Below the pieces are notes generated by a model. The model saw only the letters and a list, made by a program, of their open reading frames with translations. It was not told the DNA's origin and searched no databases. Source: Deltaproteobacteria bacterium (GTDB lineage: Bacteria > Desulfobacterota > Syntrophobacteria > BM002). From it: DNA of 63,698 nucleotides. The stretch spans positions 1,765,503 to 1,829,200 of the forward strand of contig CP070689.1 in NCBI GenBank assembly GCA_020353155.1, read 5' to 3'. The translations under genes and the position numbers were made by a program. Shown one piece after another: positions 1 through 52,142 of this stretch. Position 1 is the stretch's first letter. Every line of letters starts with the position of its first letter.

Positions 1-110
1 TCATGAGTAAAAGATCAGGTCCCAGAGAAGCAGCTTTCCGATAATCGAAAAAATTTTCTTAGCCCTTCTATTTTCCCTCCGTGGTTTAATCTAGCCCCTA
101 CTCTTTATTC

Positions 111-28010: not shown

Positions 28011-28100
28011 CTGAAACCGTTGTGCGCCGTAGTTCTAGTCTTATTTTTCGGTCCACTTCCTCTTTTTCCGGAACCTCAAATAATAGGGCGAAGAGTGCAG

Positions 28101-30263
28101 ATGAAGACATTGGAGTCAATCAGATACGAAGTTGCCCCTGTTCAGGGCGGATACACAGATCAAATTTTAGAGTTGGATCTAACCTCTTTGGCTATCTCGA
28201 CAATCGATGTAGAGCCCGGCTACAGGCGCAAATACGTAGGCGGACGCGGTTATGCCATAAAAATGATCTGGGACAGGACAACTAAAGAAACCCGTTACGA
28301 TAGTCCGGAAAATATCCTAGTGATGGCCAGCGGACCTCTAGGTAACGAACCAAGATTCCCAGGAACCGGTAAGTTTGTCGTGGGAACCATTTCACCCCTG
28401 ACTGATACCTTTATCGATTCGAACATTGGTGGTCATTTTGCGCCCCTCCTAAAGATGTGCGGCTTCGATGCCCTGGCTGTAAAAGGGATTTCCAAAAAAG
28501 AATTGGTATTGATTGTGGATGGTGACGAAGGGACTATTACTATAGCCGAGGCTCCATTATACGGTGAGGAGATAGACTCAGGAGGGCTTTCATATGGGGA
28601 AGCCCTCATAAGAGATTTTACCGGGGGTGAGTTCACAGAAAATGTTGCTGCAGTCACTACGGGCAACGGAGCTCTGAATGCCAGGTTCGGCATCATAAAC
28701 AGCCTGTTTTATGACCGGCGCAGAAAACGAATCAGAAGCAAACAAGCCGGCCGCGGTGGCACAGGCACGGTTATGCGATTCAAGGGTCTAAGGGCGGTGC
28801 TAGTCCGCTCGAGCCTGCCCCGTGTGCAGGCTAATCATCCTGTTGACAAAAAATCCGTCCAGGAAGCGGGAGCCAAACTAAAAAAGGTGATTAGCCAACA
28901 AGATCCTAAACAGCTTAACCTCGGCGCCTGGGGGACCCCTGTTTTGGTTGAATACATGAACAAGTTCCACCTGCTGCCTGTGAATAACTATCAATATGGC
29001 CAACATCCTGACGCTCCCGAGGTATTTGCCGACGTGTTTTTGAATCGCTACTTCGAGAGAAAAGTACCCGACGGCTGCTATATGGGGTGCAATCTGGCTT
29101 GTGCTAAAGGGGCTGAAAACGTGGTGCTGACCAGAGGCCCACGGGCTGGAGAAAAGGTGGGTATTGATGGCCCAGAGTACGAAACATCTGGTGCCGTTAC
29201 TTGCCAGGGCATATTCGATCCCCCCTATATAATGGAATATAATTGGTACTGTGACGAGTACGGTCTGGATACAATTTCTATGGGCGTCACAGCAGGCTTT
29301 CTTATGGAGTGTTTCCAGCGGGGGTATCTAACTGTCCAAGACACTGGCTACGAATTGTCCTGGGGCAATATTGACTCTGCCGACCGTCTTCTGCATGAGA
29401 CTGCAAGGGGAGTGGGAATTGGCAAAATATGCGGTCAAGGCGTGCATAGGGCTAAGCAGTGGGTGGCGGAACGGTGGGCCCTAAGGACAAAAAAATCCAT
29501 AGAAGAAACCATGGACGAGTTGAACAAATTTGCCATGGAGGTCAAGGGACTAGAGTTTTCCATGTACATCTGCAAAGAGTCGCTGGCACAACAGGGCGGT
29601 TACGGCTTTTCCCTCAAGGGTCCCCAGCACGACGAGGCGTGGCTTATTTTTATCGACCAAGTTCATAACGAGATACCAACATTTGAAATGAAAGCGCAAG
29701 CCCTCAAATGGTTTCCCCTCATCCGCACCTGGTTTAATGCCGTGGGTCTGTGTAAATTGCCATGGATAGATGTGCGCCACCCGGAGGCGGCCAAGACAGA
29801 TAATCCTTCACAGAATCAACCAACCCTTGAATATTATGCCAAGTATTATGGTGCTACCATAGGTGAGAAAAAGACAGTCCAAGATATTCTCGATGATTCA
29901 GAGAGGTTACATCTCTTACAGAAAATGATCAACTTGCGTCAAGGTAAGGGAACCAGGGCCTTCGATCAGATTCCCGTAAGAGCCATGGGCCCAGCTTATT
30001 TTAATGAGTACCAATCGCGAAGTGATTACTACGATGAGTGGTTAAAAGAACATCTTGCAAAAGACGAAAACTATCCAACTACGCCCGAGGAAAGGCACCA
30101 AGTCATTCTAAAGCTCAGGAAGGATGCTTACCAAAAGCTTTGCGATTCGGTTTACCAGGCCAAGGGATATAATGCAGACGCGGTGCCCCTGCGGGAGACT
30201 TTGGAAAAATTTGATCTCCTTGACGAAAAGGCTGATTCCTTATTACGAGAATACGGCTTATAA
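28101..30263 (+). CDS. aor: aldehyde:ferredoxin oxidoreductase family (tungstopterin) enzyme
   Basis: ATG at 28101 (ORF opens at 28020). GGYTDQILELDL, GGRGYAIKMIW, GPEYET and the ~720-aa length are typical of the AOR family. Confidence 0.85.
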   Translation: MKTLESIRYEVAPVQGGYTDQILELDLTSLAISTIDVEPGYRRKYVGGRGYAIKMIWDRTTKETRYDSPENILVMASGPLGNEPRFPGTGKFVVGTISPLTDTFIDSNIGGHFAPLLKMCGFDALAVKGISKKELVLIVDGDEGTITIAEAPLYGEEIDSGGLSYGEALIRDFTGGEFTENVAAVTTGNGALNARFGIINSLFYDRRRKRIRSKQAGRGGTGTVMRFKGLRAVLVRSSLPRVQANHPVDKKSVQEAGAKLKKVISQQDPKQLNLGAWGTPVLVEYMNKFHLLPVNNYQYGQHPDAPEVFADVFLNRYFERKVPDGCYMGCNLACAKGAENVVLTRGPRAGEKVGIDGPEYETSGAVTCQGIFDPPYIMEYNWYCDEYGLDTISMGVTAGFLMECFQRGYLTVQDTGYELSWGNIDSADRLLHETARGVGIGKICGQGVHRAKQWVAERWALRTKKSIEETMDELNKFAMEVKGLEFSMYICKESLAQQGGYGFSLKGPQHDEAWLIFIDQVHNEIPTFEMKAQALKWFPLIRTWFNAVGLCKLPWIDVRHPEAAKTDNPSQNQPTLEYYAKYYGATIGEKKTVQDILDDSERLHLLQKMINLRQGKGTRAFDQIPVRAMGPAYFNEYQSRSDYYDEWLKEHLAKDENYPTTPEERHQVILKLRKDAYQKLCDSVYQAKGYNADAVPLRETLEKFDLLDEKADSLLREYGL

Positions 30264-30375: not shown

Positions 30376-30621
30376 ATGTACGTATCAGTCACATTTCTAG
30401 GATTACAGAGGGCCCGAGCCCAGACCGACCAGATTACGATTGCCCTCTCAAAGGAAACTAGTGTTGCTGACCTTTTAACCTACATAAAAGAACGTTATCC
30501 CACACTGCCCTTTCCGGACGAGGACATTCTTGTGGCGGTGAATAACAAACTTTCCTCCATGGAAAGGGTACTAAGGAACAAAGATAATGTTACCTTTCTT
30601 CCCGCGATAGGTGGAGGGTAG
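30376..30621 (+). CDS. MoaD/ThiS-family ubiquitin-like sulfur-carrier protein
   Basis: 81 aa ending in ...FLPAIGGG (C-terminal Gly-Gly). Lies directly downstream of the AOR gene. Confidence 0.65.
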   Translation: MYVSVTFLGLQRARAQTDQITIALSKETSVADLLTYIKERYPTLPFPDEDILVAVNNKLSSMERVLRNKDNVTFLPAIGGG

Positions 30622-30705
30622 GTCTATTTTCCTCTTGACATTCGACGAAGCTGTGTTGTAGATATTCCAGTCCAACTAGGGAGGGAGATCCCCTCCACTG
30701 GAAGT

Positions 30706-30759
30706 GGCCCCTAAGCACCAAGCTCTCATACTACCTAAATTGCTAAGGGGCCTTTTTTT
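30706..30759 (+). terminator. hairpin plus T7 run downstream of the MoaD-like gene
   Basis: GGCCCCTAAGCA ... TGCTAAGGGGCC (12 bp, 1 mismatch, 23-nt loop) followed by TTTTTTT. Its tail GGGGCCTTTTTTTGTC is identical to the one at 27996..28011. Confidence 0.45.
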
Positions 30760-30898
30760 GTCGAAATAAAATCATTGTTTGATTTTTGCAGTTGTTGTAC
30801 AAGGTATAGGATCAAAAAAGCGCTTTTTTACGACAGATCTAGGATTGCACTACTCCAAACTTGCGAGAGCGACACTTTCGAGATTTGGGGGTGAGTAG

Positions 30899-31237
30899 AT
30901 GGTTCCTGATGAAGATAGACGCACTTATCCAAGAGCCGAAATCAGATGGCCTGTTACCATCGAAAGCGCAAGGGGCACCATAGAGGCTAACTTGAGAAAT
31001 CTCGGGGTCGGTGGTGCCTACATCCACTGCGAGGAGACGGCGGACCCGGGCGAGCGAATCTCCTTAACTATTAGACCTCCAGAGGCTTCAGCCTTTAAAA
31101 TCATCGCTGAAGTGATATGGGCAGGCAAGGTTTTGGCTCTTGGGATGGGAGTCCGTTTCGTTGAGATCTCTGACGAGGATCGACAGTTTATCTCAGATAC
31201 TGTTTCCAAACTTCTCAATGATACAAATCTCCAATGA
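30899..31237 (+). CDS. PilZ domain protein
   Basis: RRTYPR and NLGVGG motifs, plus GMGVRF. Its stop overlaps the ATG of the next gene (ATGA at 31234). Confidence 0.8.
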   Translation: MVPDEDRRTYPRAEIRWPVTIESARGTIEANLRNLGVGGAYIHCEETADPGERISLTIRPPEASAFKIIAEVIWAGKVLALGMGVRFVEISDEDRQFISDTVSKLLNDTNLQ

Positions 31238-31887
31238 CGGATGAAGCCAAAACACCAAAGTCTAAAAGCCTTCAAAGGATCCTGGTCTTCCAACAGAATG
31301 GGAGTGGTGAAAGCAAGATAAGGGGTATCAGAAAATACGGGAAGAATCTTTTTATCATTGAGACTATCTCCATCGACGAATCCCTACCTCCGATCCTTGA
31401 CGATACCGCCGACTACTTGCCCAGTGATATTCAGGCGGATCTTGTTTTGGACTTTTTGAAGCATCCGGACCTCTCCCATGATCTAGCCGCTGCCTGCGTC
31501 AAACGTAAAATACCTGTGGTCGCCTCAGGGAAAAAGTTGAAGGGTAGGAAGGTTTTTGTCCCTCCAACTTGATGCGGTCTGTCCAGGCAGGTCGGTCTGG
31601 GTCAATACGGGGAGCTATTCGGTGCCCCAGAACTTGAAGCGACGACCACCGGGGGTAAAGTCGTCAGCGTGAAGGTGATACGGGGTGCCCCTTGCGGGGC
31701 AACTTGGGACGCAGCTAAGCGGGTGGAAGGTTTACCAGTTGAGGAGGCCATATTTCGCATCGGACTAGAGACACAATACTTCTGCTCAGCCGACCCGTCT
31801 GGTTGGGATCCTATCCACGGAAAGAGTCCAGTTCATTTCGCCGGTGACGTCCACATTGCAGCATTCAAAAGAGCACTTCGGAAATAG
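31234..31887 (+). CDS. DUF166-like protein, candidate selenoprotein (in-frame UGA at 31570..31572)
   Basis: ORFs 31234..31572 and 31669..31887 are in the same frame, with no other stop between them. Read-through gives ...FVPPT-U-CGLSRQVGLGQYGELFGAPELEATTTGGKVVSVKVIRGAPCGATWDAAK... The flanking sequence resembles DUF166 as I recall it. A hairpin lies 10 nt downstream of the UGA. Confidence 0.6.
31583..31600 (+). other. SECIS-like stem-loop downstream of in-frame UGA
   Basis: CCAGGC-AGGTCG-GTCTGG forms a 6-bp stem (one G-U pair) with a GGU-containing apical loop. It starts 11 nt after the UGA. Confidence 0.4.
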
Positions 31888-32119: not shown

Positions 32120-32338
32120 ATGTCTCGGTGCGAAATATATGGAGATTGTTGGTTTTATAAGAGCACAATAGATCCGCAATCTCAAGCATTTGAATTACTG
32201 CAAAAATATTGTCACGGAGATTACTCGGCTTGCGCGCGCTACCAATTTTCGCAATCCCTCGGGAATTTCTACGTGCCCAAAGGCTTGATGCCAAATGATG
32301 TCAGAAGGATAAAGCCGGTCCTCCGCAGCCTGATCTGA
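32120..32338 (+). CDS. small Cys-rich hypothetical protein
   Basis: 72 aa with four Cys (CEIYGDC ... YCHGDYSAC). RBS GAGGTGA. A sigma-54-type promoter lies 110 nt upstream. Confidence 0.45.
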   Translation: MSRCEIYGDCWFYKSTIDPQSQAFELLQKYCHGDYSACARYQFSQSLGNFYVPKGLMPNDVRRIKPVLRSLI

Positions 32339-34432: not shown

Positions 34433-35335
34433 ATGACCTCTCGTGAACGGAGAAAACACGTTCGCATTCAGCGTCAGTTTGAGGCCAGGCTGTTCAACGC
34501 CAAAGTTAGATACGAAACCGAGGGTTTAACAGAGAACATCAGCCAGGGCGGTGTTTATTTAAGAACAAGAGATTGGCGGGTCTTCCAAGCTGGCGATCAA
34601 ACCGTCGTTACCTTATTCCTACCTCCCAGCTTCACTGATAGAGATAAAATCTTTGGTTTGCGCGGCAATGCAATTGTCAGGCGGGTGGATGAACAGAACG
34701 AAGGAGTCGCTCTGGAGTTCAGCAGGGACTTCCAAGAGTTTGAAAAAGTTGAACACTCTGAGATCGCCGTAAAATACAAGTACAAGGAGATCTCCTATTA
34801 TCTTTGCTCTATTTCAGATCTAGAGTTCGCGGATCTTATTAGGACTAACCGTCATGGCTTTTTGGTGGATAAATCGCAAGGTGGTCTGGAGAATAATGCG
34901 GTTTTCCAGTTCAGTACGCTATCGCTGGACAACGACTATGCAATGCAAGTAATCAAAAGGGATTTCTCCATTGCCAATATTCATGACGCCAGAGTTATAG
35001 AAGTCAGAAAGAGGAAGCTTGACACCTCAAAAAATACTGTAAACATTGGGCGCGCCGCAACCAATGATATAGTCATCTATGACAATCTGGTCTCCAAATC
35101 GCATGCATATCTTTACCTCCATCCCTCTGGAGAAGAATGCTACATCGTGGACTGCGGCTCCAAAAACGGAACATTACTGAATGGAAAGGTTCTAAAACCT
35201 TTTGAGAAATACAAGATTGCGGATTGCGATGAAATCTGCTTTGGACCACAAACAAAGACAGTCTATTTTTCCCCGATATCCTTCGCCAACTTCATCAGTG
35301 AACTGAGGACAGCTCATCCCCCTTCAGACATCTAA
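34433..35335 (+). CDS. PilZ-FHA two-domain protein
   Basis: N-terminal PilZ (RRKHVR, NISQGG). C-terminal FHA (VNIGRAATNDIVIYDNLVSKSHA, GSKNGTLLNGK). Confidence 0.8.
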   Translation: MTSRERRKHVRIQRQFEARLFNAKVRYETEGLTENISQGGVYLRTRDWRVFQAGDQTVVTLFLPPSFTDRDKIFGLRGNAIVRRVDEQNEGVALEFSRDFQEFEKVEHSEIAVKYKYKEISYYLCSISDLEFADLIRTNRHGFLVDKSQGGLENNAVFQFSTLSLDNDYAMQVIKRDFSIANIHDARVIEVRKRKLDTSKNTVNIGRAATNDIVIYDNLVSKSHAYLYLHPSGEECYIVDCGSKNGTLLNGKVLKPFEKYKIADCDEICFGPQTKTVYFSPISFANFISELRTAHPPSDI

Positions 35336-46587: not shown

Positions 46588-48141
46588 ATGGGAATCGTAT
46601 CAGACAAAATCAAGGAGTTGAAGGAAAGGGAAGCCAAGCTTCTTGAAATGGGTGGCGAAGAAGCAGTAAAGAAGCAACATGAACGTGGCAAACTAACCGC
46701 CAGGGAGAGAATCAATCTGCTTTTCGATCCCGGGACTTTTAGGGAAACTGATATCTTCATGAAGCACCGTGGCACCTTGTTCGGCCTGGAAAAAATGGAA
46801 ATTCCAGCCGATGGGGTGATAACAGGTTACGGCAAGGTAAATGGCCGTCCCGTTTGCGCTTTCTCCCAGGACTTCACAGCTCGCGCTGGCACACTGGGAG
46901 AGATGCATTCCAAAAAGATTTGCAAGATTCTTGACATGGCGTTGAAATCGGGAGTTCCGGTTGTGGGATTCAATGACTCAGGGGGAGCGCGCATTCAGGA
47001 AGGAGTGGACTCTCTTTCTGCCTATGGCCAAATTTTCTACCGCAATGCCATCGCCTCAGGTGTAGTACCGCAGATCTCTGCCATCATGGGACCATGTGCT
47101 GGAGGAGCAGTATACTCTCCGGCCATGACCGATTTTGTCTTCATGGTAAAAAACACCAGTCATATGTTTATAACCGGTCCCGATGTTATCAAGGCTGTGC
47201 TGGGCGAAGTGATTACCTTTGAAGATCTTGGCGGAGCCATGGCCCACAATACCAAGAGCGGAGTTGCTCATTTTGCCTGTGAAGATGACGCTAACGCAAT
47301 AGAACGAATCAAGACCCTCCTCGCTTTTCTACCCAACAACAATATGGAGGAGCCACCCAGAATAGACACCGGTGACAGTCCTTTACGAACTGATCCTTCG
47401 CTAGACAGCATCATCCCGGACAACCCTATGGCCTCTTACGACATAAAAACCGTTATCAAGTCCATTGTTGACAACGGTAATTTCTATGAAATTCACGAAT
47501 TCTACGCGCAGAATATCGTTGTGGGCTTTGCCCGACTGGATGGCCGCACTATAGGGATTATTGCCAACCAGCCCAAGGTGCTTGCGGGTTGTCTGGACGT
47601 GAACTCGTCTGACAAAGCAACCCGCTTCATTCGCTTTTGCGACTGTTTCAATATCCCGCTACTCACTATTGCGGACGTGCCCGGTTACCTACCCGGTAGC
47701 GATCAAGAATGGAGCGGGGTTATTCGCCACGGAGCCAAGCTACTCTGGTGCTACTCTGAGGCCACAGTGCCCAAGATTACCCTAATTACCAGAAAGGATT
47801 ATGGCGGATCCTATCTGGCCATGTGTTCCAGGGATCTGGGCTGCGACATGGCTTTGGCCTGGCCCACAGCAGAGATCGCTGTGATGGGCGCCGAAGGAGC
47901 CGCTAACATTATATTCCGCAGAGAGATTCAGGGGGCGAAGGATCCCGAAGAAAAGAGGAAGGAGTTGATCCAGGACTACCAGAATCGCCTTTACAATCCT
48001 TATATAGCTGCTTCGCGAGGGTATATCGACGCGGTAATCGTCCCGAGTGAAACTCGACCTCGTCTCATAGAGGCACTTGAAGTGCTGAGCACAAAGAGAG
48101 AAACCTTGCCACCGAAGAAACATGGTAATATACCCATGTGA
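46588..48141 (+). CDS. methylmalonyl-CoA/propionyl-CoA carboxyltransferase (12S / PccB-type)
   Basis: 517 aa. GKLTARERI, GFNDSGGARIQEG, GPCAGGAVYSPA and ANQP...GCLD motifs of the carboxyl transferase family. Confidence 0.9.
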   Translation: MGIVSDKIKELKEREAKLLEMGGEEAVKKQHERGKLTARERINLLFDPGTFRETDIFMKHRGTLFGLEKMEIPADGVITGYGKVNGRPVCAFSQDFTARAGTLGEMHSKKICKILDMALKSGVPVVGFNDSGGARIQEGVDSLSAYGQIFYRNAIASGVVPQISAIMGPCAGGAVYSPAMTDFVFMVKNTSHMFITGPDVIKAVLGEVITFEDLGGAMAHNTKSGVAHFACEDDANAIERIKTLLAFLPNNNMEEPPRIDTGDSPLRTDPSLDSIIPDNPMASYDIKTVIKSIVDNGNFYEIHEFYAQNIVVGFARLDGRTIGIIANQPKVLAGCLDVNSSDKATRFIRFCDCFNIPLLTIADVPGYLPGSDQEWSGVIRHGAKLLWCYSEATVPKITLITRKDYGGSYLAMCSRDLGCDMALAWPTAEIAVMGAEGAANIIFRREIQGAKDPEEKRKELIQDYQNRLYNPYIAASRGYIDAVIVPSETRPRLIEALEVLSTKRETLPPKKHGNIPM

Positions 48142-48161
48142 GTATGGTTCCTTCGTAAAGC

Positions 48162-48199
48162 AAAAAAGCCCCTACCTGAATCAGTTTAGGGGCTTTTTT
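48162..48199 (+). terminator. rho-independent terminator after the carboxyltransferase gene
   Basis: AAAAAAGCCCCTA-loop-TAGGGGCTTTTTT. Confidence 0.75.
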
Positions 48200-48201
48200 A
48201 C

Positions 48202-48383
48202 GACTAAACACTAGGCACTAAACACTAGGCACTAAAGAATACATAATATTAAATATAAATATTTTAAATTATTAATTAAAAAATAAATTATTTAAGAAAA
48301 AACTTTAAATATAAAATATTCAATTTTGGCCTTGGGACAAATCTCTTATAGTAGTGCTTAGTGCTTACTGCCTAGTGCCTAGT
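48202..48383. repeat. TAGGCAC-word inverted repeat enclosing a 92-nt loop of about 96% A+T
   Basis: Arms: GACTAAACACTAGGCACTAAACACTAGGCACTAAAG and TAGTAGTGCTTAGTGCTTACTGCCTAGTGCCTAGT. The core (48237..48328) has only ~4 G/C. Confidence 0.75.
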
Positions 48384-48424
48384 TCGCAATGCGCTATGTG
48401 CATTGCGTAACTCGCCTTGGCGAG

Positions 48425-48832
48425 TTAGTCTTCCCGCTCACTGAGCTCGATGAGTACTCCATGGGTTGATTTCGGATGGAGAAATGCTATTTTGGCGCCA
48501 CCGGCTCCTTTGCGCGGCTTCTCGTCTATGAGTCTTATACCCTTTTCCTTTAATTCAGCCAGAGCCTCCTCTAAGTTTTCGACCCGAAAAGCAATATGTT
48601 GTATTCCTTCACCTCTTTTCTCGAGGTACCTGGCAATAGGCCCGTCAGGAGCGGTTGACTCCAGGAGTTCAACCTCGCTGTCTCCTACAGGAAAGAAGGC
48701 TGTGGTTACCTTTTGCTCCTGAACAGTCTCAGTCCCTTCGAATTCCAGTCCCAGGATGTGGTGAAACAGCTTTTTTGCTTCCTCGATACTGTTAACTGCA
48801 ATACCCAGATGATCGATCTTCAGTACTTTCAT
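48425..48832 (-). CDS. mce: methylmalonyl-CoA epimerase (VOC family)
   Basis: [20 protein letters not shown] and [14 protein letters not shown]. 135 aa. Confidence 0.85.
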
Positions 48833-48850
48833 CTATCTCTCCTCTCTAAT

Positions 48851-48912
48851 CGCACAGCGAAAGGCGCAAAGCGCATAGCGTTTACTCTTTCTTTCACTAT
48901 GCTCTATGCCCC
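48851..48912. repeat. GCATAGC-word array inside the mutase operon (between meaB and the epimerase gene)
   Basis: CGCACAGCGAAAGGCGCAAAGCGCATAGCG ... CACTATGCTCTATGCCCC. Confidence 0.6.
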
Positions 48913-48924
48913 AAGCTCCATACC

Positions 48925-49878
48925 TTATTCCTCTGGAAAAATTGTGCGGACAATTTCCTGAACGCTGGTGTAGGGGTCCTTCTTGTGGGCAACGATATCA
49001 TCAATTAGAGCGTCAAAACGGCCATTTCCGAGAACTTTTTCTAGGACATTTCGGGAAATCTCGTCTTTCAGTAGAGCCAGGGTTTCCTGTCTGGTTTTTT
49101 CTCTGCGATTTTTTCTTAGTTTTCCACTTTCACGGAGAAAACTCCTGTGTCTTTCGATAGCCTCCACCAAGGACTCTGTTCCTTGATTCTCCACTGCTAT
49201 GGTTTTCAGAACCGGTGCCTGCCAAGCAGTTTTTTTGATCTGGAAGTCTTGTTCGACTCGGACGTTTATTTCGCTCAGCAATTCATCAGCACCTAATCGG
49301 TCGGCTTTGTTAACCACGTAGAGATCAGCAATTTCCATCACTCCCGCTTTCATGCTCTGGATGGTGTCACCCAAACCCGGGGCCAATACCACGATGGTGG
49401 TGTCTGCGGTTTTGGCTATTTCCACTTCATCCTGGCCTACACCCACAGTTTCGACAATCACCCAGTCCTTACCAAAGGCATCCATAATCTTAACTACGTC
49501 AGCTGTGGTACGGGCGAGTCCGCCGAGATTTCCTCGAGTTGCCATTGAACGAATAAAAACTTCGGCATCACCCGAAGAGCGTTGCATGCGAATTCGGTCT
49601 CCCAAAAGGGCACCACCGGTAAAAGGGCTCGAAGGGTCCACCGCAATCACGCCAACCGTCTGTTCCCGCTCGCGTAAGATTGTAGTGATTTTGTCTGTTA
49701 AGGTACTCTTTCCAGTTCCGGGCGAGCCGGTAATGCCTAACACATATGCCTTTCCCGTGTGGGGGTATATGGCTCCCATGATCTGCAAGGCCCTGGAATC
49801 CTCGTTTTCTACCAAGGTGATGAGTCTGGCCATGGCCCTTACTGAACCTTGTAACACTTCTGCAACTAAGTCTTCCAT
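48925..49878 (-). CDS. meaB: methylmalonyl-CoA mutase-associated GTPase MeaB/ArgK
   Basis: ATG at 49878 lies 13 nt after the stop of the upstream gene. P-loop GITGSPGTGKSTL, then DPSSPFTGGALLGDR, ETVGVGQ and NKAD. Confidence 0.9.
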   Translation of the reverse strand: MEDLVAEVLQGSVRAMARLITLVENEDSRALQIMGAIYPHTGKAYVLGITGSPGTGKSTLTDKITTILREREQTVGVIAVDPSSPFTGGALLGDRIRMQRSSGDAEVFIRSMATRGNLGGLARTTADVVKIMDAFGKDWVIVETVGVGQDEVEIAKTADTTIVVLAPGLGDTIQSMKAGVMEIADLYVVNKADRLGADELLSEINVRVEQDFQIKKTAWQAPVLKTIAVENQGTESLVEAIERHRSFLRESGKLRKNRREKTRQETLALLKDEISRNVLEKVLGNGRFDALIDDIVAHKKDPYTSVQEIVRTIFPEE

Positions 49879-49891
49879 GCACCCCTCAGAA

Positions 49892-50296
49892 TTAAGTCCC
49901 GGAAATTTTATCCTCGATGAATTTGATAATATCATCCGTTCTGGTACCCGGCCCAAAGATGGCAGCCACTCCGGCTTTTCTTAACCCCGCAACATCCTCT
50001 TCGGGTATAATGCCGCCGCCAACAACCAGAACATCATCGAGACCTTTTTCCTTGAGCAATTCCACCACCCGAGGAAAGAAATAGTTGTGTACGCCACTCA
50101 AGCTGCTCAACCCAACCACGTCGGCGTCCTCTTGAAGCGCCGCATCAACTATCATCTCCGGAGTCTGACGCAGCCCGGTATATACCACTTCCATTCCAGC
50201 TTCAGCAAAAACGCGCGCCAACAACTTGGCCCCCCGGTCATGACCGTCTAAGCCAGGCTTAGCCATGATGACTTTGATCCTCTTCTTAGTTGTCAT
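49892..50296 (-). CDS. methylmalonyl-CoA mutase, B12-binding small subunit
   Basis: 134 aa. [13 protein letters not shown] (a DxHxxG-type motif) with a Rossmann-like B12-binding domain. Confidence 0.9.
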
Positions 50297-50310
50297 CCTT
50301 AACCTCCTAC

Positions 50311-50404
50311 TTAGCGCATAGCGGTAAGCGCATAGCGCATGGCGAAAAAAATCTTTCTCAGTCCACAGTTTTTACGCTCTGCCCTTGGCGCTATGCGCTC
50401 TGCG
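50311..50404. repeat. GCATAGC-word hairpin inside the mutase operon (between the large and B12-binding subunit genes)
   Basis: TTAGCGCATAGCGGTAAGCGCATAGCGCAT versus CGCTCTGCCCTTGGCGCTATGCGCTCTGCG. About 80% complementary, with a ~30-nt loop. Confidence 0.7.
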
Positions 50405-50405
50405 A

Positions 50406-52085
50406 TTACACAAATTCCTTTGGTCGATACTCGCCCCAAATATTCCGCCACACATCGCATATTTCACCAACGGTTGCCCTGGCCTTAACCGCTTCAATCA
50501 CTGCAGGCATGACATTCTCATCCGTTCTTGAGACTTCATCCAGCCTACCCAGCGCCGCTTTCCAGACCTTTTGATCTCTTTCGGCCCGAAGCTTCTTCAA
50601 CTTCTTCGTCTCTATTTCTTGTTGCTTGGGATCCACCCTGAGCAGGTTTGTTGGTGGCGGCTCTTCCATGGTATACTTGTTGATCCCCACGTAGATCCGC
50701 TCATTGGCCTCGATCTCTTTCTGGAAACGATAGGCACTATCCTGGATTTCTCTCTGAATGTAGCCTTCTTCTATGGCTTTCAGGGTGCCTCCCATAGAGT
50801 CAATCTTTTTCATGTACTCATCGATTTTTTCCTCGATCTGGTCAGTCATGGCCTCGACGTAGTAAGAACCCGCCAGCGGGTCAATGCTGTCCGCTGCCCC
50901 ACTTTCCTCGGCAACAATCTGCTGGGTTCTCAGAGCCACAGTTACCGCTTCCTCAGTGGGCAAACATAAGGCCTCATCAAACGAGTTGGTGTGCAATGAT
51001 TGAGCACCACCGTAAGCCGTTGCCAGGGTCTGCAAGGCAACCCTGACAATATTGTTCAGTGGCTGTTGGGCAGTGAGGGTTACACCCCCGGTCTGCACGT
51101 GATAGCGCATCATCATCGACCTTGGGTTTTTAGCGCCAAATCGCTCCTTCATAACCTTTGCCCAGTAGCGTCTGCCGGCTCTGAACTTGGCCACCTCTTC
51201 CAGCACATTGGTAAAAGCATTATAGAAAAAGGATAGCCGCGGTCCAAAGGAGTCGACATCCATCGCCGCATCGATGCAGGCTTGCACATAGGAAATTCCG
51301 TTTGCGATGGTAAAGGCCATCTCCTGGGCCGCGGTGGAGCCAGCCTCGCGAATGTGATAACCACTGATGCTTATGGTGTTCCAGGTGGGAACATGCTCAT
51401 AGCAGTATTTTATTAGATCCACAGTGAGACGCATGGATGGAAGGGGTGGATAGATGTACTGGCCTCGACAGATAATCTCCTTGAGTATGTCGTTTTGTAC
51501 AGTGCCGCCCACCTTGTTGTAAGGAAGGTTTTGTTCTTCCGCCAGAGCCAAATACATGGCCAGTAAAACAGTTGCCGGAGCATTGATAGTCATAGAGGTG
51601 GTAACCTTGTCGAGAGGAATCTGGTCGAAAAGAACTCGCATGTCATCAATGGAATCTATGGCAACTCCCACTTTGCCCACTTCGCCCATGGAGAGGGGAT
51701 GGTCGGAGTCGTAGCCTGACTGAGTTGGCAGGTCGAAGGCTACACTAAGGCCCGTCTGACCTTGTTTCAATAGATACCTATAGCGTTCATTGGTCTCACG
51801 AGCGGTGCCAAATCCAGCATACTGACGCATAGTCCACAAGCGGCCCCTGTACATTGTGGGCTGTACTCCCCGGGTAAAAGGATATTCGCCGGGAAACCCC
51901 AACTTATTGTCGTAATCAAAGCCGGCAATATCAACCGGGGTGTAGAGACGCTCAACCTCCTCACCTGAAATAGTGGTAAATGTGGGCCTTCTTTCCGGGA
52001 ACTTGGCACAAACTTTTTCTACTGGGCCGCAGTCCCACTCTTCCTTTTTTGTTTTGACAGACTCTAGCTTTTCCTTGTCAAACAT
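50406..52085 (-). CDS. methylmalonyl-CoA mutase, large (catalytic TIM-barrel) subunit
   Basis: ATG at 52085 follows GAGGAGGAA. FPGEYPFTRG, WTMRQYAGFG, GLSVAFDLPT and RTQQI motifs. Confidence 0.95.
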   Translation of the reverse strand: MFDKEKLESVKTKKEEWDCGPVEKVCAKFPERRPTFTTISGEEVERLYTPVDIAGFDYDNKLGFPGEYPFTRGVQPTMYRGRLWTMRQYAGFGTARETNERYRYLLKQGQTGLSVAFDLPTQSGYDSDHPLSMGEVGKVGVAIDSIDDMRVLFDQIPLDKVTTSMTINAPATVLLAMYLALAEEQNLPYNKVGGTVQNDILKEIICRGQYIYPPLPSMRLTVDLIKYCYEHVPTWNTISISGYHIREAGSTAAQEMAFTIANGISYVQACIDAAMDVDSFGPRLSFFYNAFTNVLEEVAKFRAGRRYWAKVMKERFGAKNPRSMMMRYHVQTGGVTLTAQQPLNNIVRVALQTLATAYGGAQSLHTNSFDEALCLPTEEAVTVALRTQQIVAEESGAADSIDPLAGSYYVEAMTDQIEEKIDEYMKKIDSMGGTLKAIEEGYIQREIQDSAYRFQKEIEANERIYVGINKYTMEEPPPTNLLRVDPKQQEIETKKLKKLRAERDQKVWKAALGRLDEVSRTDENVMPAVIEAVKARATVGEICDVWRNIWGEYRPKEFV

Positions 52086-52142
52086 GATTCCTCCTCTCTG
52101 AATCATCGTGCTGGCTCAGCAAAACGTGTATTCTTATCAAAT

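Follow-up and report, generated by a model that had tools for sequence, protein, structure and literature searches.

Probable selenocysteine recoding of a deltaproteobacterial DUF166-family gene, dfsP, and the candidate SECIS hairpin behind its UGA codon

The closest described system is the DfsP family of selenoproteins, which was first described in 2007 as the "conserved protein COG1810" selenoprotein with a predicted SECIS, from the metagenome of the delta-1 and delta-4 symbionts of Olavius algarvensis (Zhang & Gladyshev, PMC1976440). Two reviews that cover prokaryotic selenoproteomes list the family (PMC9312934, PMC13188914), and NCBIfam models it as the equivalog NF041372, "DUF166 family (seleno)protein DfsP". 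The literature that we searched offered nothing on the function of DfsP/COG1810, and neither 75Se-labelling nor mass-spectrometry proof for any DfsP. Within the wider Pfam superfamily DUF166, the sole member with genetic data is MMP_RS05055 of Methanococcus maripaludis, a gene next to cooC2 that shows cofitness with CODH/ACS and whose deletion abolishes CODH/ACS-dependent autotrophy (bioRxiv 10.1101/2024.03.05.583561). A first-pass annotation of the locus studied here had called DUF166 a domain of no established function, which is nearly right, the exception being this archaeal DUF166 needed for autotrophy in a 2024 preprint (bioRxiv 10.1101/2024.03.05.583561).

The locus lies in a stretch of 63,698 nucleotides of a deltaproteobacterial genome, hereafter the window, and its features are collected in Table 1. 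The gene, dfsP, shares with the described DfsP proteins (NF041372, PMC1976440) the position of Sec followed by Cys, a SECIS immediately downstream, and a deltaproteobacterial (Thermodesulfobacteriota) lineage; the family comprises both Sec and Cys forms. Nothing essential differs, the window protein being 10 codons shorter at its N-terminus than its nearest relatives. On this sequence evidence we regard the window gene as an ordinary member of the known DfsP family, with nothing new to it. The proposal of the first-pass annotation that a DUF166-like gene is recoded by Sec is borne out by the profile matches and homologs described below; novelty of a Sec form of DUF166 is not supported, the family having been known since 2007 (PMC1976440) and modelled as NF041372. 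MMP_RS05055 has the Pfam superfamily in common with DfsP, but it is archaeal and not a selenoprotein, and the window dfsP has no adjoining CODH/ACS genes.

Table 1. Coordinates of dfsP, its recoding elements and its upstream context in the window
Feature	Position	Strand	Basis
Aldehyde:ferredoxin oxidoreductase (AOR) family gene (context)	28020..30263	+	AFOR_N + AFOR_C; syntenic in 8 related loci
ThiS/MoaD-like small protein, Gly-Gly end (context)	30376..30621	+	PF02597, E 1.6e-10
Terminator-like long-loop GC-rich hairpin + UUUUUUU	30705..30760	+	-20.6 kcal/mol, z = -2.0
PilZ-domain gene, 112 aa	30899..31237	+	PF07238, 51.4 bits
dfsP, DUF166-family selenoprotein gene, predicted 217 codons including Sec113	31234..31887	+	PF02593, NF041372
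UGA, predicted to be read as Sec113, then invariant Cys114	31570..31572	+	codon survey + homolog alignment
Candidate SECIS hairpin, 7 bp (31582-31588 with 31595-31601)	31582..31601	+	covariation in 67 TGA loci

Reading frame, family membership and the codon at the Sec position

The ORF 31234..31572 consists of 112 codons and a TGA and is in frame with the ORF 31669..31887; this TGA is the sole stop between the two, the 96 nt that follow it are open, and the joint frame ends with a TAG at 31885-31887. Both this layout and the 217-residue read-through product, which contains ...KVFVPPT-U113-C114-GLSRQ..., APCGATWDAAK and ...GAPCGATWDAAK..., agree with what had been read from the sequence at first pass. 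When the 63.7-kb window was scanned for TGA codons flanked on either side by 60 or more open codons, nine sites emerged, among which 31570 alone lies in a credible coding frame; since the DUF166 HMM alignment moreover crosses this TGA, the recoding signal at 31570 goes beyond chance. The same scan found no further in-frame-TGA selenoprotein candidates in the window. A P-type ATPase of the window was also considered as a selenoprotein candidate and rejected, its HMA motifs being CxxC, not UxxC.

For profile searches, Cys was put in place of Sec in the read-through protein. PF02593 (DUF166) gives a single alignment of residues 18-216 with profile positions 2-220 of 221 (E 1.3e-42), which covers both sides of the TGA. 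NF041372 is matched end to end (model positions 1-203 of 203) with 338.9 bits at a cutoff of 200, placing the gene in a selenoprotein family already curated by NCBI; the Cys-form homologs P0003, P0057 and P0087 match this model too. The part downstream of the TGA, covered by both profiles, thus belongs to the same family and is not a separate one. A search of 5.8 billion proteins yielded 1447 relatives, and the best 120 of these, which were aligned, run full length past the TGA position (58-76% identity, 89-100% coverage). Among these best 120 the Sec column holds Cys in 112 and "W" in eight (P0001, P0002, P0006, P0032, P0051, P0063, P0079 and P0102), and the following column is Cys in 120 of 120.

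At the DNA level, a scan of one genome per species provided 80 loci (L numbers denote loci); at the homologous codon 68 of them have TGA and 12 have TGT or TGC, so that across the DfsP family the position is taken by either Cys or Sec (80 of 80 loci with TGA or TGY). Among the carriers of TGA are cultured organisms such as Desulfonema magnum 4be13 and Desulfacinum infernum DSM 9756, and Desulfopila sp. IMCC35006 carries TGC. Two dfsP paralogs, L019 and L051, occur in the Desulforhopalus sp. MAG MFD12129_ilm_asm_bin8, one of them being a Cys form (TGT) and the other a Sec form (TGA).

An exhaustive HMM search of 1.84 billion cluster representatives (E<=1e-3) found 364 family members, many of them fragments that stop precisely at ...PPT or begin right after the Sec site. 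Half-protein entries of this kind in public collections include P0136, P0138, P0137 and P0142, and some sources label family members "thymidylate synthase", apparently by inherited annotation. Should the TGA be a true stop, the locus would hold two small genes (one of 112 aa, one of 72 aa starting at GTG 31669), a nonsense pseudogene, or a sequencing error in a TGC or TGT codon. Such a reading would account for the way in which standard gene callers split the locus and for the many N-terminal halves ending in ...PPT and C-terminal halves among protein entries; it also accords with the window itself, in which no tRNA genes (selC included) were found in the 63.7 kb and no SelA, SelB or SelD domains in the 20 largest ORFs, while a SelB gene lies 7 kb from dfsP in one relative, L084. 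However, half-length fragments cut at this very point bear the signature of Sec genes truncated by gene callers, and the identical TGA is followed by an intact frame in 68 of the 80 species-level genomes, a stop downstream of the Sec codon being absent in every relative examined. The dN/dS of the 104 codons after the TGA is 0.157, 0.080 and 0.083 in comparisons with L003, L004 and L005, respectively, that is 0.08-0.16, equal to the values of 0.154, 0.073 and 0.063 for the 96 codons before it, which points to purifying selection of the same strength on both halves of dfsP. The 96 nt between the TGA and GTG 31669 encode the conserved family residues CGL..G.YG..FG.PE, and the hairpin behind the TGA is conserved and covarying (see below). 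A genuine stop at 31570 is therefore very improbable.

The eight database homologs deposited with W at the Sec position could instead speak for a UGA reassigned throughout the genome (code 4 or 25, Trp or Gly), in which case the residue would not be Sec. Both W entries checked at the DNA level, P0001/L001 and P0006/L002, carry TGA, and translation under code 11 does not yield the deposited protein, which indicates that their W stems from gene calls made under a code with UGA as Trp. Moreover, the sense codon in homologs is always one for Cys, never for Trp or Gly, and other genes of the window end normally at a TGA, for example the PilZ gene and that of a Pfam-complete carboxyltransferase (48139). 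As TGA ends Pfam-complete genes in the window, a reassigned code can for practical purposes be excluded. We therefore hold to Sec, and the dfsP product is very probably a 217-aa cytoplasmic selenoprotein of the DUF166 family.

The hairpin downstream of the UGA

The SECIS of Escherichia coli fdhF is an experimentally defined bacterial SECIS and serves as the reference for the hairpin of the window. The latter has the core CCAGGC (31583-31588), the apical loop AGGUCG (31589-31594, with GGU at 31590-31592) and the 3' arm GUCUGG (31595-31600), and a U-G pair extends it to 31582-31601, so that it begins 10 nt past the UGA. The hairpin with a GGU loop that had been noted at first pass from 31583 onward is thus present, and, as set out below, it is kept in 67 TGA loci and lost in the Cys forms.

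Folded in isolation, the hairpin has -9.4 kcal/mol and a z of -2.0; the single-sequence fold of 74 nt (31567-31640) is unexceptional, with a z of -0.74. The minimum free energy structure of the latter segment pairs the UGA itself (UUGAU with GUCAA), and it was rejected because the flanking bases vary among the aligned relatives. Its lower stem was not predicted by RNAalifold on the alignment of relatives either, and the conserved apical hairpin was retained in its place. An Rfam search, with gathering thresholds over the whole window and with E<=10 over 31400-31800, returned no SECIS or other credible RNA family. Given the lack of an Rfam match and the unremarkable single-sequence fold, the support for the hairpin is comparative, not thermodynamic.

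This comparative support comes from a gap-free alignment of 60 nt around the TGA in 67 distinct TGA-bearing loci, from which RNAalifold derives one hairpin only, at columns 19-38, equivalent to 31582-31601 of the window. In these loci, 94.7% of the cells of the 7-bp helix are paired, a value reached by none of 500 column shuffles, and with the 3' arm shifted by one column or more no more than 19-64% remain paired. Of the 67 loci, 50 have C-G at pair 21/36 and 15 have A-U, and pair 24/33 is G-C, G-U, A-U or C-G. The switch at 21/36 falls on synonymous third positions, TCC to TCA (Ser) on one side and CTG to CTT (Leu) on the other, and synonymous compensatory changes of this kind are a classic sign of selection on RNA structure within a coding region. 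In the loop, GG (31590-31591; alignment G27 and G28) is invariant, and no fewer than 62 of 71 loci have GGU. Among the 12 Cys-form loci an average of 4.1 of the seven pairs persists and the GGU loop is missing from all, their peptide being more variable here. In this comparison, then, a conserved, covarying and correctly placed hairpin exists only where the codon is TGA.

The fdhF SECIS sequence used for comparison was checked against 5,426 E. coli genomes and matched 5,419 of them, with an identity of at least 99% in almost every case. The window hairpin and the fdhF SECIS are identical in GCAGGUC at the apex, and both lie within the coding sequence, shortly after the UGA; GCAGGUCUGC is common to the fdhF SECIS and 27 dfsP relatives. 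Counted from the U of the UGA, GGU is at +21..23 in the window and at +22..24 in fdhF. They differ in the loop, which has 6 nt (AGGUCG) in the window, whereas GGUC is closed by an A-U pair in fdhF, and in the lower stem and its context. We propose that the hairpin 31582-31601, with GGU in its apical loop, would act as a bacterial SECIS, and that this loop would bring SelB-GTP-Sec-tRNA(Sec) to a ribosome that has halted at the UGA; both SelB binding and Sec insertion at the window hairpin are suggested by analogy with fdhF. Taking codon survey, selection and covariation together, we are highly confident that the UGA at 31570 is decoded as selenocysteine with a recoding hairpin of its own.

Conserved residues and fold of DfsP

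Alignment of the window protein with 27 diverse DUF166 representatives reveals that Cys114, Cys154 (in GAPCG) and Cys184 are invariant in all 27, and that 23 of these retain His201, 20 retain His77 and 20 retain His207. The Sec113 column is occupied by Cys in 13 representatives and by Phe, Thr, Leu, Met, Gly or Ser in the other 14; Sec113, which adjoins the invariant Cys114, is therefore a subfamily-specific residue. Cys88 is present in six of the 27 representatives, largely DfsP and its closest relatives. The pattern suggests a probable three-Cys (plus His) centre beside Sec113, most likely a redox-active or metal-ligating one, in which Sec113 may be an extra ligand of a metal or cluster, or may form a vicinal selenenylsulfide with Cys114.

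An AlphaFold2 model was made for P0003, a Cys homolog with 66% identity to the window protein (pLDDT 93.7, pTM 0.89); its N-terminal half is alpha/beta and its C-terminal half mixed. Foldseek of this model against the PDB gave no match at E<=0.001, and the best similarity (E 0.016, TM<=0.33) is of a generic alpha/beta kind from which no fold-based function follows. A PDB sequence search with the family profile also returned nothing meaningful.

A vicinal Cys-Sec redox pair, in the motif GCUG, is found in mammalian thioredoxin reductase. DfsP resembles it in that Sec and Cys are adjacent and a selenenylsulfide would be possible in both, which we take as an analogy only: the order is U-C at an internal site in DfsP and C-U at a C-terminal site in thioredoxin reductase, and the folds are unrelated. 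The first-pass annotation had likened the Sec next to a Cys to redox selenoproteins with UxxC or UC. The adjacency stands, but membership in the thioredoxin-fold UxxC/CxxU class does not, since the motif is an adjacent U-C, the P0003 model has no PDB match, and a thioredoxin-family Pfam match is absent.

Gene neighbourhood and possible role of DfsP

As had been noted at first pass, AOR and MoaD-like genes precede the PilZ-dfsP pair (Table 1). The AOR ORF opens at TTG 28020 with a non-conserved leader of 27 residues, and tblastn matches to relatives start at residues 2-25; the real start is probably an internal ATG near 28101 (MKTLESIRYEV...). The MoaD-like protein scores under the cutoff of TIGR01682 (moaD). 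Between the MoaD-like and PilZ genes sits the GC-rich hairpin with its U-run, the loop of which is too long for a simple terminator scan; it suggests that PilZ-dfsP is transcribed apart from AOR-MoaD.

Motifs of PilZ c-di-GMP receptors are RxxxR and (D/N)xSxxG. In the PilZ protein of the window RTYPR is present, and the second motif reads NLGVGG, with Gly replacing Ser. The TGA stop of its gene overlaps the ATG of dfsP as ATGA (31234-31237), exactly as first described, and the overlap arises because the window dfsP is 10 codons shorter at its N-terminus; translational coupling of the two genes is plausible in this genome. The order AOR, MoaD-like, PilZ, dfsP, a 72-aa Cys-rich ORF and an OmpA-like gene is shared solely with L001 and L003-L013, which are uncultured Syntrophobacterales-like and "Deltaproteobacteria" MAGs. 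PilZ and dfsP are spaced by -4 nt in the window (as in L005, provided that its first ATG is the start), by 26 nt in L003 and L004, and by 200-714 nt in eight others; in most clade relatives dfsP starts 122 codons before Sec, behind a ribosome-binding site of the GAGG type.

If the coupled pair were a bicistron that fixes the stoichiometry of a PilZ-DfsP complex, DfsP would be tied to c-di-GMP signalling, and the ATGA overlap in the window and possibly L005, the PilZ gene upstream of dfsP in L001 and L003-L013, and the terminator-like hairpin that divides the pair from AOR-MoaD would all be in keeping with this. Against it stand the spacers within the clade, 26 nt in two relatives and far longer in others, with a separate GAGG-type ribosome-binding site, the additional small ORF between PilZ and dfsP in L012, the degenerate (D/N)xSxxG motif, and the remaining, more distant loci (about 68 of 80), which have no PilZ neighbour save two weak, distant matches. 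Such a complex is unlikely, and the PilZ-dfsP arrangement looks, from its distribution, recent and local and not a property of the family. The PilZ operon had been put forward as a new functional clue; with adjacency in the nearest clade only and a spacer of -4 to 714 nt, that clue is weak.

Immediately 3' of dfsP lies the 72-aa Cys-rich ORF 32120..32338 (+), MSRCEIYGDCWFYK...CHGDYSACARYQF..., which has no Pfam or NCBIfam match; its counterparts at this position in 10 related loci are 76-97% identical to it in amino acids, a higher conservation than that of DfsP. Another PilZ-domain protein, in this case a fusion with an FHA domain, is encoded at 34433..35335 (+), 2.5 kb downstream of dfsP. 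Farther away, 46588..52106 holds a cluster for a carboxyltransferase, a MeaB GTPase and methylmalonyl-CoA mutase (methylmalonyl-CoA pathway), which, together with the MAG names of the nearest relatives, fits a propionate-metabolising Syntrophobacterales-like organism.

Clustering of the neighbours within 5 kb in 83 loci revealed no universal or conserved operon partner of dfsP. An ABC-F ATPase forms the most frequent cluster and is present in 20 of the 83 loci, NuoF-like and FdhA formate dehydrogenase proteins in 12-15 (mostly Cys-form Desulfopila-like genomes), and an FeS+DUF3786 protein in 11. Three genomes were inspected individually: L083 has an NAD-formate dehydrogenase beside dfsP, L084, an uncultured Desulfobacterium genome, has dfsP flanked by HdrA/MvhD-like genes, and the third has it in an unrelated signalling context. 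In L083 (4734..7421, with equivalents in L057 and L043) the FdhA upstream of the Cys-form dfsP is called as two ORFs of 348 and 542 aa with a short gap, which looks like the usual FdhA Sec codon cut by the gene caller; a conserved 128-aa protein without Pfam match lies between FdhA and dfsP there.

The formate dehydrogenase, Hdr and AOR neighbourhoods, taken with the archaeal DUF166 genetics, weakly suggest, as a best guess of low confidence, that DfsP serves anaerobic metalloenzymes of C1 and aldehyde metabolism as an accessory protein, in their maturation or in electron transfer. A more specific version, in which DfsP would be a Sec-dependent accessory or maturation factor of metalloenzymes, gated here by c-di-GMP through its PilZ partner, would draw on the position of a tight PilZ-dfsP unit in this clade right behind the AOR and MoaD-like genes, a tungsten/molybdenum-pterin enzyme cassette, and on the Sec-containing formate dehydrogenase or HdrA/MvhD neighbours elsewhere; we consider it quite unlikely.

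For annotation, the ORFs 31234..31572 and 31669..31887 should be joined as one selenoprotein gene, and public protein sets contain numerous truncated DfsP halves as well as some "W"-mistranslated copies. The window adds one more instance of DfsP and opens no new question, and the comparative data assembled around it, namely the 68:12 ratio of Sec to Cys forms, the SECIS covariation, the place of Sec113 beside the invariant Cys triad and the variable redox-enzyme neighbourhoods, may be useful to those who characterise the family.
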